The position numbers and the translations under genes are program-made. Shown here in pieces: positions 42,922 to 48,631 of a DNA stretch of 64,000 nucleotides. A model generated the notes under the pieces. The model ran no database searches and had not been told where the DNA came from. It was given only the letters and a program-made list of their open reading frames with translations. Origin of the DNA: Candidatus Fermentithermobacillaceae bacterium (GTDB taxonomy: Bacteria; Bacillota; Sulfobacillia; Fermentithermobacillales; Fermentithermobacillaceae); NCBI GenBank assembly GCA_018052475.1, contig JAGPNG010000003.1, positions 32,723 through 96,722 of the forward strand, given 5' to 3'. The first letter of the stretch is position 1. Every line of letters starts with the position of its first letter.

Positions 42922-43704
42922 TTAGGCAATACCTCCGCCGTCTACCACTATCGTAGTTCCGGTTATCCACCCCGAAAGATCGCTGGCCAAGAACAAGACT
43001 GCGTTTGCGATATCTCGTGGCGTACCTATTCTTCGGAGCGGTCTGTCTACTCCCGAAGATCTAAGAAACTGTTCCTCATCGTATCCAAGTTGCCGCGCCT
43101 CTCCTCTGAGCATGGGAGTATCTGTATCACCAGGGCAGACGCAGTTGACTCTTATATTATCGGGGCCATGATCTATTGCCATAGCGCGCGTAAGGTTTAC
43201 AACACCTGCTTTTGCCGCACAGTAAGAAGCTGCCTTATCTCCGCCCTTGAGGCCCCAACCGGACCCCGTGTTGATGATACTCCCTCCTCCAGACCTGACC
43301 ATGACCGGGATAACGTATTTCGACACCAAGTAAGTGCCTTTAAGACAAACATCCAATACCATATCCCATTCCCTTTCCTGATGGTGAACAACATCCTTCC
43401 TCACGATAACCCCCGCGTTGTTAAAAAGAACGTCTATATGCCCATACTTGTTCTCTATTTTCTTTATGGTCTCACGGCACGAAGAATCTGAAGTGACGTC
43501 GCACTCAAAAAAACCGCACTGGCCCCAATGTTCTGAGATCCTCTTGGCTGCCTCTAAACCCTTTTCCCGTTGTATGTCAAGGATTATCACATTGGCCCCA
43601 TATTCAGCTAGGATCTCCGCAGAAGCCAAACCTATGCCTGATGCGCCTCCTGTCACTATGGCAGTCTTTCCCTCCATAACTAAAGGATTCACATATTCTC
43701 GCAT
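42922..43704 (-). CDS. classical short-chain dehydrogenase/reductase
   Basis: TGGASGIG, NNAG and the Ser...YCAAK catalytic motif. Confidence 0.88.
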   Translation of the reverse strand: MREYVNPLVMEGKTAIVTGGASGIGLASAEILAEYGANVIILDIQREKGLEAAKRISEHWGQCGFFECDVTSDSSCRETIKKIENKYGHIDVLFNNAGVIVRKDVVHHQEREWDMVLDVCLKGTYLVSKYVIPVMVRSGGGSIINTGSGWGLKGGDKAASYCAAKAGVVNLTRAMAIDHGPDNIRVNCVCPGDTDTPMLRGEARQLGYDEEQFLRSSGVDRPLRRIGTPRDIANAVLFLASDLSGWITGTTIVVDGGGIA

Positions 43705-43717
43705 CTAAATTTCCTCC

Positions 43718-45274
43718 TCAAACTGTATGTTTTTTCAAGTACGACCTCCAAGTAATCGCCCATTTTGAAGGGTCGTCAAACCAATCTTGGCGGATTTTGT
43801 GTACTACGCTCTTATGAGGAGCACTACGCAAGACCTGTGGGCTCTCGTATGCTTCACGTGACACTTCTTTCAGCGCTTCTACGTACTCGTCCAGTTCTTC
43901 CTTTGACCAAGATTCTGTCGGCTCAAGAGTGAAGGGTTCTGCAACGATCCACGGATGGTGACTTGTCCAGTAATGAAGGCCAAAGTCACACATCCTCCTC
44001 TGCACATCTTCGGTGGTTATGCCGGTCTCCTCGGTCAAAGGTGCCCAGCTGTATCGCACCTGTTCAAAACGATGTTTGCCCGGTGCGTACGGAATATGGA
44101 TCCCCCTTATCTTTCTTATCTTCGATAGGAGATAGTTGCTGTTAAGAACCGCCACCTTAGATACTTCCCTAAGGCCGTCTTCTCCGAGGCTCATTATCCA
44201 CGCGTATGCTCTGACTACCGCAGGGATCCCGCCATAAAACATCTTGATTTTCCCGATCGAATTCGGAAGATCATAGTTCAGAGTATACTTTTCCCCATCG
44301 AAATCTACCACAGGAACCGGCAAGAACTTCTCAAGATCCTTCTTGACACCCAATGCCCCCGAACCAGGTCCTCCGCATCCATGCGGCGAAGAAAAAGTTT
44401 TGTGCAGGTTGAAAAAACACATATCAAAATCTGCTTCTTTAGCCCTGGTGATACCTAAAATACCGTTTGCGTTCGCTTGGTCATAACCACATAGGCCACC
44501 TGCTTCATGCACGATTCGTGTAAATTCCTTGATGCGCGGGTTGAATACTCCGGTATCCTCAGGATTGGTCACAATAAGGCCAGCAGTTCGCTCCGATACA
44601 ACATTCTTCAAAGCCTCTAGATCGGGATAACCATTCTCATCCGGGAGAATAGTAATCACCTTGAATCCCTTGACCGCTGAGACTGCCGCGTTAGAAGGAT
44701 GAGAAAACATCGTGGTTATGATCTCGTCTCGATGTTCTTCTTGGTTTCTTAATCTGTGATAGGCACGGATAATAGAGGCCATACCCAAAGAAGCCTGAGA
44801 ACCCCCACCAGGTTGAAACGAGAACCGATCAAGCCCTGAGATCTCCCTGAGAAACAGATCCGTCTTATACATTATTTCAAGCACGCCCTGTACTGTTTCG
44901 GCCGGTTGATATGGGTGCAGGTCTTTTATCTTCGATGAGGAGGCAAATCTCTCATTTATCTTAGGGCTGTACTTCATTGTGCAAGTCCCCTGCCCTATCT
45001 CTATATTAACATCGACACCTAAGGTTTGCTGAGACAGCCGAAGGTAGTGCCTAAGAACCTGCGCCTGAGAGAGTTCAGGAAGACACGGCGGTGTCTGCCT
45101 CTTCATGAATTCCGGCAAATCCTCCCAAGGGTTCCCGACTTCATTTGTGACCTCTTCTTCCGCTCGTTCCACGAAAATCGCGGATTGCCCCTCTTTACTC
45201 ATCTCGAATATAATGGGTTCGTCCCATTTAGCCTGGTGAAACCCTTGGCGCGACAGCTGTCTTTCCTTTTTCAT
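43718..45274 (-). CDS. glycine-decarboxylase P-protein subunit 2 (GcvPB)-like PLP enzyme, divergent
   Basis: CTMKYSPKINE and the PLP-lysine motif NLHKTFSSPHGCGGPG are present. The canonical SAHGTNPA region reads FSHPSNAA. Confidence 0.75.
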   Translation of the reverse strand: MKKERQLSRQGFHQAKWDEPIIFEMSKEGQSAIFVERAEEEVTNEVGNPWEDLPEFMKRQTPPCLPELSQAQVLRHYLRLSQQTLGVDVNIEIGQGTCTMKYSPKINERFASSSKIKDLHPYQPAETVQGVLEIMYKTDLFLREISGLDRFSFQPGGGSQASLGMASIIRAYHRLRNQEEHRDEIITTMFSHPSNAAVSAVKGFKVITILPDENGYPDLEALKNVVSERTAGLIVTNPEDTGVFNPRIKEFTRIVHEAGGLCGYDQANANGILGITRAKEADFDMCFFNLHKTFSSPHGCGGPGSGALGVKKDLEKFLPVPVVDFDGEKYTLNYDLPNSIGKIKMFYGGIPAVVRAYAWIMSLGEDGLREVSKVAVLNSNYLLSKIRKIRGIHIPYAPGKHRFEQVRYSWAPLTEETGITTEDVQRRMCDFGLHYWTSHHPWIVAEPFTLEPTESWSKEELDEYVEALKEVSREAYESPQVLRSAPHKSVVHKIRQDWFDDPSKWAITWRSYLKKHTV

Positions 45275-46759: not shown

Positions 46760-47731
46760 CTAAAAGAGGTCACCTATAAATGTGAAAAAGCGTCGCCCCG
46801 GCTTTAGAGTAGATCCGATCTCTGAGATGATCATGCCGGCAAGAATCAAGATCCCACCACAAATCTCACGACTAGCCAAAACTTCGCCTGCCTTGAGCCA
46901 AGCAAATAACGCTCCGAAAACCGGTTCTGCGGATAGTATGAGCGCTGCGTGTGTAGCCGATGTGTATTTCTGGACTCCGGATTGTATGAGTATCGTAAGT
47001 GAAGTAGCAATGATCGCAGTATAGGTAATTGAGGCCCAGCTGTCTCGAGGTATAGTAAGCGGCCACTCAAACATAATCGCGGCGAGAAAAGCTCCGCCAG
47101 AAACTATCAGAAGTTGGATTGCGGCAAAGACAACCGGATCGTTGTTTTTAGAATGTTTCTCTATAAGGAGGATGTGAGCGGCAAACCCTATTGCACACAG
47201 GAATACCAGGAGGTCTCCCGCCTGAATGGTGAGGGGGAAAGTCAGCGACATGATTCCTAATCCGATAGTCGCAAGCGCCACGCCAAGCACAGTGTTCTTA
47301 GGGAGGGCCGCTCTAAGTAAAACAGATGATGCCACAGGGACCATGACAACCGACAGCCCCGTAATGAACGCTGCTTTTCCGGCAGGCACCGTAATCAACC
47401 CCACGGTCTGTGTAGCATAAGCCAAGAATAATACTATCCCTGTTACCACTGAGCCTTTCATGAAGCTGTGGCCGGACTGTCCGGTTTCAGAAAGCGCATG
47501 GCAGTCCGCGGCGTTTCTAGAAGCCGGGCCTTCAGTATTCCGAGAGTTCTTCCCGGCGGCGTATGCTCGCAAAAGCACAATAACCAACAGAAAAATGCCG
47601 CCAATAAAAAACCTAACGGCTATGAACGTGAACGGCTTTATAGCCGATATTGCCTCTTTTACCACTACAAACGTAGTACCCCAGATCACCGTGACCAAGA
47701 GTAAGAGGGAATCTGCTACTATTTGGCTCAT
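46760..47731 (-). CDS. DMT superfamily (EamA-type) transporter
   Basis: About 10 TM helices in two EamA repeats, with a hydrophilic insertion after TM2. Confidence 0.82.
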   Translation of the reverse strand: MSQIVADSLLLLVTVIWGTTFVVVKEAISAIKPFTFIAVRFFIGGIFLLVIVLLRAYAAGKNSRNTEGPASRNAADCHALSETGQSGHSFMKGSVVTGIVLFLAYATQTVGLITVPAGKAAFITGLSVVMVPVASSVLLRAALPKNTVLGVALATIGLGIMSLTFPLTIQAGDLLVFLCAIGFAAHILLIEKHSKNNDPVVFAAIQLLIVSGGAFLAAIMFEWPLTIPRDSWASITYTAIIATSLTILIQSGVQKYTSATHAALILSAEPVFGALFAWLKAGEVLASREICGGILILAGMIISEIGSTLKPGRRFFTFIGDLF

Positions 47732-47767
47732 ATGACTACTCCGTTTTACGCCGAGTCATCGACGTTC

Positions 47768-48631
47768 TCATGGTTCGTAAAAATAAGACCCGCTGCACAC
47801 CGCTACGGCTGGCCCAGTCTGCCACACGTGACCATCTTCTTTCCACTCTACCAGAAGCACGCCTCCTGGTAAACTGACTTTAATCGGGGTGCCCTTTTCT
47901 GCCTTGCCATTTAGGATCGTAGCGACCACCGAAGCCGAAGATCCCGTGCCAGATGCGAGCGTTATCCCCGAACCCCTTTCCCATATGCGCATGTCAATGG
48001 CGTCACGTGACTTTACCGCAACAAACTCTATATTTGCCCGTTCAGGGAATATAGGGTGATTCTCCAGGGCCGGACCAATCCGCTCAAGATCAATGTCATG
48101 AACATCATCGCAGAAAAAAACGCAGTGCGGATTTCCCATTGATACACAAGTTCCGTAGAACACTTGGCCTTCAAACTCGATAGGCTCGTTTACCGCCGGC
48201 TCCGGTCCTTCTAATCTGGCGAGAGGGATGTCGGATCTCTTTAGTCTGGGTTCTCCCATATCAACCGAGACTAATTCTACCTGTCCATCTTTCACCGTAA
48301 GATAAGGCCTTATTAATCCAGCTTTTGTTTCAACAACCAGTTCAACCTTGTCTGTTAGTCTATTCTCGTACACATATTTAGCAAAACATCTAATGCCGTT
48401 ACCGCACATTTCCCCCTCCAAACCATCCGCGTTGAACATTCGCATCCTGAAATCCGCTATATCGGATGGCTCAATTGTAATCAGCCCGTCTGAGCCTACT
48501 CCAAAGTGCCGGTCGGCAATTGCCCGGGTCAACGTGCTCCAATCCTCGTCTTCCTTGTAAGAAAACCTATCCACATAAAGATAATCATTGCCAAGCCCAT
48601 GCATTTTCGTAAACGGAATACTTCTGGTCAC
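47768..48631 (-). CDS. dapF: diaminopimelate epimerase-like protein (second catalytic Cys replaced by Ser)
   Basis: FTKMHGLGNDY, CGNGIRCF (first catalytic Cys) and SMGNPHCV are present. The ACG(T/S)GAC position reads ASGTGSS. Confidence 0.8.
   Translation of the reverse strand: MTRSIPFTKMHGLGNDYLYVDRFSYKEDEDWSTLTRAIADRHFGVGSDGLITIEPSDIADFRMRMFNADGLEGEMCGNGIRCFAKYVYENRLTDKVELVVETKAGLIRPYLTVKDGQVELVSVDMGEPRLKRSDIPLARLEGPEPAVNEPIEFEGQVFYGTCVSMGNPHCVFFCDDVHDIDLERIGPALENHPIFPERANIEFVAVKSRDAIDMRIWERGSGITLASGTGSSASVVATILNGKAEKGTPIKVSLPGGVLLVEWKEDGHVWQTGPAVAVCSGSYFYEP

Follow-up and report, generated by a model that had tools for sequence, protein, structure and literature searches.

Do five genes packed on one strand serve a single amino acid-transforming pathway, or does one transcript carry two functions that evolved apart? 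The question is raised by positions 42922-48631 of a stretch of 64,000 nucleotides from a Candidatus Fermentithermobacillaceae bacterium (GenBank assembly GCA_018052475.1, contig JAGPNG010000003.1, positions 32,723 to 96,722 of the forward strand), the whole of which is called the window hereafter. Read in the direction of transcription, the five minus-strand genes encode a variant of the diaminopimelate (DAP) epimerase DapF (47768-48631, 287 aa, GTG start), a transporter of the EamA/drug-metabolite transporter (DMT) family with two EamA domains (46760-47731, 323 aa), a non-canonical GcvPA-like alpha (pseudo-)subunit that we call PA' (45271-46689, 472 aa from ATG), a non-canonical GcvPB-like subunit of the pyridoxal phosphate (PLP)-binding type, PB' (43718-45274, 518 aa), and a classical short-chain dehydrogenase (SDR), SDR' (42922-43704, 260 aa).

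We read the cluster as a composite transcription unit that joins two evolutionarily independent modules, a DAP epimerase variant and a non-canonical P-protein-like/SDR module, and we would put the probability of this reading at roughly 0.55. The five-gene order is a lineage-specific juxtaposition, not to be read as one pathway, as the distribution of the genes indicates. The complete order was found only in close relatives, namely the window itself and the loci L001-L011 and L103-L106, in which identity is no lower than 74% for DapF and 69% for PA; one of them, L011, from the closest species-representative genome and labelled Ca. Fermentithermobacillaceae, has a DapF 84% identical to that of the window and the same nine-gene neighbourhood. 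At L091, where DapF is 71% identical, the DapF-EamA pair lies between the formiminotransferase/cyclodeaminase (FTCD) genes and the M20 peptidase, DUF4438 and tricorn genes, and unrelated genes occupy the place of PA-PB-SDR. PA'-PB'-SDR', for its part, occurs without DapF in Aminicenantales, in Njordarchaeota and in 77 distant metagenome loci. A first-pass annotation of the locus had assigned all five genes to one pathway, in which stereo-inversion would feed the decarboxylase, and had looked to a neighbourhood conserved across genomes; the single pathway is not supported by the distribution just described, nothing was found in support of the stereo-inversion, and conservation holds for the three-gene unit PA'-PB'-SDR' and not for the five genes together.

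In the two-module reading, the first module would consist of dapF, in its serine form, and the EamA transporter gene, with DapF serving as the diaminopimelate epimerase of the lineage. The second, PA'-PB'-SDR', would belong to a large bacterial and archaeal clade of P-protein-like alpha/beta PLP proteins that has lost the canonical motifs lining the active site, and in which the pair would be coupled to a dedicated, probably NAD-dependent SDR, joined in many lineages by another SDR and an NAD-kinase-like protein.

The P-protein-like pair

Judged by family models only, PA' and PB' would pass for the two subunits of the glycine-cleavage P-protein. PA' reaches 493.1 bits against the NCBIfam equivalog NF001696 (cutoff 364) and PB' 587 bits against NF003346 (cutoff 441), in comparison with 548-551 bits for PA and 648 bits for PB in controls that have the canonical motifs, and with 397-436 bits for other PAs that lack them; all these P-like proteins exceed the cutoffs and are therefore automatically named GcvP. 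The best solved match of both subunits is, by a wide margin, the P-protein of Thermus thermophilus (E = 1e-67 for alpha and 1.2e-93 for beta), the alignment of PA' to 1wyt_A spanning residues 13-466. The arrangement of an alpha-beta pseudo-dimer is likewise retained: like the Thermus alpha subunit, PA' is without the PLP lysine and shows Q-T-L at the place of the H-K of beta, and PB' has the lysine as Lys292 (44399-44401) within NLHK.

The pair departs from the P-protein at motifs that are otherwise invariant from Thermus to human. In PA', AYAGEPYEDHGRFQ (46333-46374) stands in place of the canonical AYTPYQPExSQG, and in the form typical of the subfamily YTPYQPExSQG has become YAGEPYEDHGRFQ. 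The motif of the AYAGEPYEDHGRFQ type is kept in all of the 120 best PA' homologs (120/120), which share about 60% identity with the query and come, by name, from Aminicenantes, Acidobacteriota, Chloroflexi, Aerophobetes, Acetomicrobium (Synergistota) and three Asgard lineages. PB', compared by alignment with 1wyt_B, 4lgl and 6i33, contains SHPSN, YDQANANG, PHGCGGPG and HYWTSHHP, and its family has its own invariants in place of the canonical ones: HPS(N/D)AA for HG(T/S)NPA, DQAN for DGAN, PHGCGGP for PHGGGGPG, and FH(L/Y)W(S/T)SHHP for FHAPTxSWP. Pfam GDC-P (PF02347) gives 21.7 on PB', below its cutoff of 26, whereas a canonical PB matches.

The extent of this departure was surveyed by a search of 1.84 billion representatives, in which PA clusters that lack the canonical motif, with several variant motifs among them, extend from 62% down to about 41% identity to the query. 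PAs with the canonical motif start at 42% identity or below, and of about 100 full-length representatives in that range almost every one has the motif or a close variant of it. On these sequence comparisons, PA'-PB' is outside the canonical P-protein clade. The first-pass annotation was right in calling the gcvPA/PB-like pair non-canonical, and also in holding that the P-like and DapF-like proteins deviate at normally invariant positions, as seen here in the PA' motif and the PB' motifs and, further below, at Ser227 of DapF. A sister subfamily 49% identical (L187, 164-4299) has TPSSDHGRNQA as its alpha motif and a DAO-family FAD oxidoreductase gene upstream instead of an SDR gene; given this DAO-type partner, the combination of an oxidoreductase with a P-like pair is a recurrent one, which suggests that such modules make up a family.

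In fold-type I dimers, the segment of the partner subunit equivalent to the alpha motif reaches into the active site. By analogy, the alpha motif probably lines the active site of beta or the lipoamide channel. We infer that PA'PB' would act, by means of PLP and independently of H-protein, on an alpha-amino acid that exceeds glycine in size or polarity, which it would decarboxylate or cleave at C-alpha, and that SDR' would oxidise a hydroxyl in an amino or hydroxy acid.

The dehydrogenase and the genomic company of the pair

SDR' is a member of the classical SDRs by its Pfam matches (adh_short at 191 bits, and adh_short_C2 as well) and by its motifs, TGGASGIG at residue 18 and YCAAK at 161, which correspond to TGxxxGxG and YxxxK. 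It scores 236 against NF005559, a glucose 1-dehydrogenase subfamily with a cutoff of 215, and among solved structures it has only generic relatives, with BacC (183.5 bits) as the best match. An Asp at the end of beta-2 (VIILD) suggests, on sequence, a preference for NAD(H).

What sets this SDR apart is the company it keeps. A metagenome scan with a PA' profile yielded 80 loci, 77 of them distant, and in 49 of the 77 PA'-PB' has beside it an SDR whose identity to SDR' is 50% or more and reaches 63%; considering the loci with enough flanking sequence, the SDR' ortholog is beside the pair in 27 of 31. The linkage persists across phyla, and PA'-PB'-SDR' is therefore the robust unit. In 22 loci, the PB' and SDR genes flank a gene for a 370-aa NAD-kinase-like protein, which is absent from the window and from loci of the DTU015 type, the class described below, and a second SDR (33-37% identical) is frequent near PA'-PB'. 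The order is SDR-SDR'-PA'-PB' in Aminicenantales and GntR followed by PA'-PB' and the NAD-kinase-like gene in Acetomicrobium. In Njordarchaeota, L184 (6991-13482, contig Ga0315309_1000030) reads SDR, SDR', PA', PB', NAD-kinase-like and creatininase-family amidohydrolase; of all the loci seen, this six-gene, same-strand cluster, hosted by an Asgard archaeon, has the module at its most complete.

The partners of a glycine cleavage system are scarce around the pair. With E. coli query sequences that were approximate, tblastn gave no GcvT match across the 77 PA' loci and a single GcvH match, to a gene outside the operon in L124. The latter (2941-3729) encodes an unusual 262-aa fusion of a YukD/ubiquitin-like and a GCV_H domain and lies 2.4 kb from PA', with a divergent EamA gene between the two. 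When the Pfam families of the 125 other neighbouring open reading frames (ORFs) were tallied, neither GCV_T nor GCV_H nor any recurrent further partner was among the 25 commonest. The commonest family is that of the MttB-type methyltransferases (4 ORFs), and corrinoid proteins account for 2 ORFs. At L154 (586-6741), PA'-PB' lies between genes for an MttB-family methyltransferase and a corrinoid protein, with a GntR-type regulator upstream. Such a neighbourhood may point to a link with quaternary-amine or one-carbon (C1) metabolism, or may be due to chance. The canonical PA control locus, P0257, lies on a contig of 4.2 kb and was uninformative on gcvT and gcvH. No description of a P-protein-like/SDR module was found in a literature search of limited coverage.

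The pair could nevertheless be a genuine glycine-cleavage P-protein of a divergent anaerobe or archaeal lineage, with the H, T and L proteins encoded elsewhere and the SDR accessory or unrelated. This would agree with the equivalog scores of both subunits, with T. thermophilus as the best solved match, with the PLP lysine and the PYQ...QG motif kept in beta, with FTCD, another folate C1 enzyme, as the divergent neighbour, with the MttB and corrinoid genes that flank the pair in three loci, and with the GCV_H-domain gene 2.4 kb off in one. We consider it unlikely, although it is the likeliest of the alternatives, for at the motifs that are invariant from Thermus to human both subunits have other residues, which the subfamily in turn keeps without variation, gcvT was found in 0/77 loci, and GCV_T and GCV_H stay out of the tally of commonest neighbours. 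Moreover, SDR orthologs whose identity stays at 50% or above between phyla and between domains bear the mark of a functional partner, and the motif-less clade has split into numerous subfamilies whose oxidoreductase partners differ, a pattern usual where substrates have diversified. We know of no role for an SDR in glycine cleavage.

The DapF variant

The first gene of the operon is, by all family measures, a dapF. Its product matches the equivalog TIGR00652 over the full length at 295.3 bits (cutoff 114.65) and PF01678 in two stretches, and it falls inside the DapF orthologous group, a result that the first-pass annotation had named as one that would count against its proposal. Its first catalytic cysteine is retained as Cys76 (48404-48406), within EMCGNG. 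The second catalytic position is taken by Ser227 (TCT, 47951-47953), within TLASGTG, which leaves the protein with one of the two cysteines; Cys is found at this position in all 96 Cys-type relatives aligned and in the solved DapFs 2otn, 9mro and 3ejx. The motifs that bind DAP (GLGND, FNADG, CGNG, SMGNPH, RANIEF and WERG) are the same in the window protein and in the three solved DapFs aligned with it. For the Corynebacterium glutamicum enzyme (CgDapF), the DAP-binding residues are N15, N74, N85, N159, N194, E212, R213 and T223 (PMC5296763), and the motifs that hold its carboxylate-binding and distal L-amino-binding residues are all kept in the window protein, the residues being mapped by motif and not by superposition.

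The Ser form makes up 31 of the 120 nearest DapF homologs, at 55-95% identity to the query. Between Ser-type and Cys-type proteins identity is 55-67%, and the former nest within the DapF orthologs. The codon for Ser227 in the Ser-type proteins is always TCN, with all four third bases present, and the serine has therefore been long maintained. Public assemblies contain an identical DapF protein in 57 indexed blocks, and all the copies read have the same gene order. A sequencing error or a pseudogene, considered as the source of Ser227, was ruled out by these 57 identical indexed copies and by the variety of the TCN codons.

Two further substitutions accompany the serine. Val216 is replaced by Ile (47984-47986) in 100% of the Ser-type DapFs vs 0% of the Cys-type, and Ala231 by Ser (47939-47941) in 94% vs 1%. 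V216I and A231S track Ser227 in all three Ser groups, which do not cluster in the tree: two small groups are solid (60/60 and 59/60 neighbour-joining bootstraps) and are placed among Cys forms, and the Ser-type DapFs were recovered as one group in 0/60 bootstraps. A single origin, which we also considered, is thus unsupported by bootstrapped neighbour-joining, a simple method, and the shared V216I and A231S could also mean one origin. Either the Ser form arose repeatedly with the same companions, or it arose once, long ago, and the simple tree is wrong; repeated or single, the origin therefore points to a selected, working active-site configuration.

The genomic context of Ser-type DapFs outside the window lineage is in line with DAP synthesis. 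At L095, dapF overlaps dapL by 4 nt, the aminotransferase scoring 534.8 against PRK09276 (cutoff 507), and at L014 an LL-DAP aminotransferase gene, whose product is 58% identical to the aminotransferase of L095, comes directly after dapF; the same dapF-dapL arrangement occurs in at least 40 of the Cys-type loci examined. At L093, the Ser-type dapF is solitary. The Ser form is present in at least three DapF groups, two of which have it in dapF-dapL pairs. From these comparisons we conclude that the window DapF is, to all appearances, the working DAP epimerase of its lineage in a one-thiol form, and not a new enzyme.

In such a form, Cys76 would take the alpha-proton from the L-centre of LL-DAP, and Ser227, at the N-terminus of a helix and possibly acting through a water molecule, would reprotonate from the opposite face. 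The Cys76/Ser227 pair would favour the biosynthetic direction, from LL to meso, by analogy with an Asp/Glu racemase with Thr/Cys for Cys/Cys, EcL-DER, which has been reported to work from L to D only (PMC8142540). The catalytic cysteines of CgDapF can form an inactivating disulfide (PMC5296763). With Ser227 in place of the second Cys, this active-site disulfide cannot form, and the Ser227 enzyme would be immune to the disulfide inactivation of two-Cys DapFs. A natural Ser-type DapF was not found described in the literature search, whose coverage was limited.

Members of the proline-racemase family with a Cys/Thr pair became dehydratases, and the window DapF may similarly have been neofunctionalised, as a one-base eliminase or dehydratase, a strictly one-way epimerase, or an enzyme for a DAP-like substrate such as lanthionine. 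That Ser227, V216I and A231S go together in each of the three Ser groups hints at remodelling of the catalytic sub-site, the gene next to dapF in the window lineage is of an exporter type and not dapL, homologs with other substrates are known from what the reports on HisR of Fusobacterium (PMC11602996) and PddB (PMC8225329) describe, and DapF mutants with Cys changed to Ala are nearly dead (PMC5296763). Neofunctionalisation is improbable all the same, given the coupling of dapF to dapL in two Ser-type lineages, with the 4-nt overlap in L095, the conservation of all residues for the distal L-centre and both carboxylates, and the position of the protein within the DapF orthologs at 55-67% identity to Cys forms.

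Transcription and the case against two modules

The ORF listing confirms the five minus-strand genes at 42922-48631 and the gaps of 36, 70, -4 and 13 nt between them that had been given at first; with an alternative GTG start at 46698, PA' would have 475 aa and the gap between eamA and PA' would be 61 nt. The hairpin terminator proposed at 42859-42903 is real, with a stem of 18-19 bp followed by UUUUGU, a folding energy of -30.3 kcal/mol and z = -4.96, and none of 200 shuffles (0/200) folded as well. The SDR' gene and the M20 peptidase gene converge on this hairpin, which can therefore terminate transcription from either side. A simple terminator scan did not have this hairpin among its listed sites. 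At the other end, dapF and the glutamate formiminotransferase (FTCD) gene diverge from an intergenic stretch of 224 nt (48632-48855), which is the presumed promoter region. The promoter scan found a sigma-70-like match there on the plus strand alone, at 48747-48776, and the GTG start of dapF is preceded by the ribosome-binding site GAGGGGG. The promoter of the five genes is therefore assumed, and a single transcription unit plausible; of the earlier proposal, the terminator stands and the promoter remains a presumption. A folding check found no terminator-like fold in the 70-nt gap between eamA and PA', which is therefore compatible with read-through, and the five genes are probably co-transcribed in this lineage. 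The transporter encoded upstream of that gap matches PF00892 in two stretches at 122.7 bits, and no specific NCBIfam equivalog reached its cutoff on it.

A single five-gene pathway for a non-glycine amino acid of the D- or diamino type, with transport by EamA, inversion or elimination by DapF, decarboxylation by PA'PB' and reduction by SDR', would be in keeping with the tight single-strand packing, with one terminator and none in the internal 70-nt gap, with an order that several species-level relatives retain at identities as low as about 74% (DapF) and 69% (PA), with the alteration of both enzymes at catalytic or active-site motifs and with the EamA gene adjoining PA' in the distant L124, but is very improbable, given that DapF-EamA stands without PA'PB'SDR' in the same synteny at L091, that in every other phylum examined PA'PB'SDR' has neither DapF nor EamA with it, that Ser-type DapF occurs elsewhere in dapF-dapL pairs with every DAP-recognition motif kept, that the EamA gene of L124 is divergently oriented and its product has no detectable similarity to the window EamA, and that the Asp of SDR', typical of NAD+-dependent oxidative enzymes, is ill-suited to a biosynthetic reductase.

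The division into two modules has its own difficulties, and these weigh against it. The probable co-transcription leaves a small probability to a functional link between the five genes in this lineage. Both subunits of the pair pass the equivalog cutoffs and keep the PLP lysine and the architecture with an alpha pseudosubunit, so that they could decarboxylate glycine; the part given to the alpha motif in the active site derives from the fold-type I analogy and not from a structure, and in three loci PA'-PB' lies amid MttB-type and corrinoid genes, a context of the C1/glycine type. As for the epimerase, mutation of either CgDapF cysteine to Ala leaves the enzyme almost inactive (PMC5296763). 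With these points counted, the two-module reading is the one we prefer. The joint proposal that the P-like clade works outside glycine cleavage, free of H-protein and with dedicated oxidoreductases, often together with an NAD-kinase-like protein, and that the Cys/Ser DapF is the first natural one-thiol epimerase, is more tentative, and we place it a little short of even odds.

Genomic surroundings

Precomputed Pfam calls, which cover window positions ~1-58600, include no GCV_T, GCV_H, dap or lys gene, and a dapL query had no match in the window. The only element detected by Rfam at the gathering score in the window is a flavin mononucleotide (FMN) riboswitch, with neither a glycine nor a lysine riboswitch. 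The first-pass annotation had likewise seen no gcvT, gcvH or glycine riboswitch near the pair and no other dap or lys genes nearby, and both statements hold. The FMN riboswitch (29724-29863, plus strand; 84.3 bits vs a gathering score of 66.2) is upstream of a gene for the S-component of an energy-coupling factor (ECF) riboflavin transporter (29951-30472).

Divergent from the operon are two separate genes on the plus strand, for glutamate formiminotransferase (48856-49752) and formiminotetrahydrofolate cyclodeaminase (49816-50430), and after these FTCD genes comes one for an Orn/Lys/Arg decarboxylase (50507-51994, minus strand). The neighbourhood of the operon on the FTCD side is kept in relatives without PA'-PB'-SDR'. 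On the opposite side, a tricorn-like/S9 peptidase gene is followed by an overlapping DUF4438 gene (37381-40351, plus strand), a pair that is also kept in L091 and L011.

The block gmk-rpoZ-coaBC-priA-def/fmt, at 18.8-24.9 kb of the window, is syntenic with L014 10004-20831, and the window copy contains no dapF. In L014, which has a Ser-type DapF, dapF-dapL is directly upstream of this housekeeping block. As dapF is beside the block in L014 but not in the window, the gene has therefore moved in the lineage of the window.

The window is rich in peptidase genes. The organism belongs to the class DTU015, whose members are described as thermophilic anaerobes that ferment peptides and amino acids and are found in digesters (PMC10215811), and the many peptidase genes are consistent with the peptide-fermenting lifestyle of this class. 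The DTU015 genome paper and its supplements make no mention of glycine cleavage or DAP genes (PMC10215811).

Implications

The three-gene module is found from Bacillota to Asgard archaea, is named GcvPA/GcvPB by standard pipelines and is probably misannotated. If it is not a glycine decarboxylase, the glycine cleavage and reductive glycine pathway calls made for many metagenome-assembled genomes, those of Asgard archaea included, would be partly wrong, and the metabolic reconstruction of many uncultured anaerobes would be affected. If our reading of it is true, the module would represent an undescribed amino-acid or amino-alcohol pathway of anaerobes, with new PLP chemistry or a new substrate. 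The P-like clade also makes it possible to examine how a decarboxylase that depends on a lipoyl protein is retooled, the invariant motifs of both its subunits having changed in step. The recurring natural Cys-to-Ser replacement in DapF, on the other hand, bears on the two-thiol mechanism, on redox inactivation and on the status of the enzyme as an antibiotic target and, if the interpretation is correct, the Cys/Ser form would be the first diaminopimelate epimerase to work, in nature, with one thiol.

Comparison with known systems

Among characterized systems, the closest to PA'-PB' is GcvPA/GcvPB of T. thermophilus (1wyt), with which the pair shares an alpha subunit without and a beta subunit with the PLP lysine, encoded by two overlapping genes. 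Unlike GcvPA/GcvPB, it has changed motifs in alpha and beta, a PB' below the GDC-P cutoff and neither linkage to gcvT/gcvH nor a glycine riboswitch, and it is linked instead to an SDR and often to an NAD-kinase-like gene and a second SDR.

The window DapF resembles the enzymes of Bacillus anthracis (2otn), Haemophilus influenzae (1gqz) and C. glutamicum (5h2g) in its first catalytic Cys and its DAP motifs, and aligns to the B. anthracis protein over residues 5-286 (E = 1.5e-89). The catalytic pairs of the two-Cys enzymes, with one cysteine at either face of the substrate, are Cys73/Cys217 in H. influenzae and Cys83/Cys221 in C. glutamicum. Unlike them, the window protein has Ser227 at the position of the second cysteine (Cys217 or Cys221, respectively), with V216I and A231S linked to it. 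It is also like EcL-DER (PMC8142540), a two-base racemase that needs no cofactor and that naturally has a hydroxyl residue for one of its catalytic Cys; EcL-DER, however, has the Asp/Glu racemase fold and Thr, not Ser, as the replacement, so that the analogy would be a mechanistic one only. The Fusobacterium histidine racemase HisR (PMC11602996), the Dab racemase PddB (PMC8225329) and the O-ureidoserine racemase 7vdy, which matches the window DapF at E = 3e-40, share the DapF fold, and such enzymes often bear the annotation DapF. By their descriptions they have two catalytic cysteines and changed substrate sites, unlike the window DapF, which keeps the DAP site and has a changed catalytic residue.

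SDR', finally, has the Rossmann TGxxxGxG and the YxxxK of the glucose 1-dehydrogenase, BacC and FabG SDRs (5itv, 3vtz). Unlike these characterized SDRs, none of which is close to it, SDR' is marked by an orthology that extends across phyla, at 50-63% identity, and is tied to PA'-PB'.

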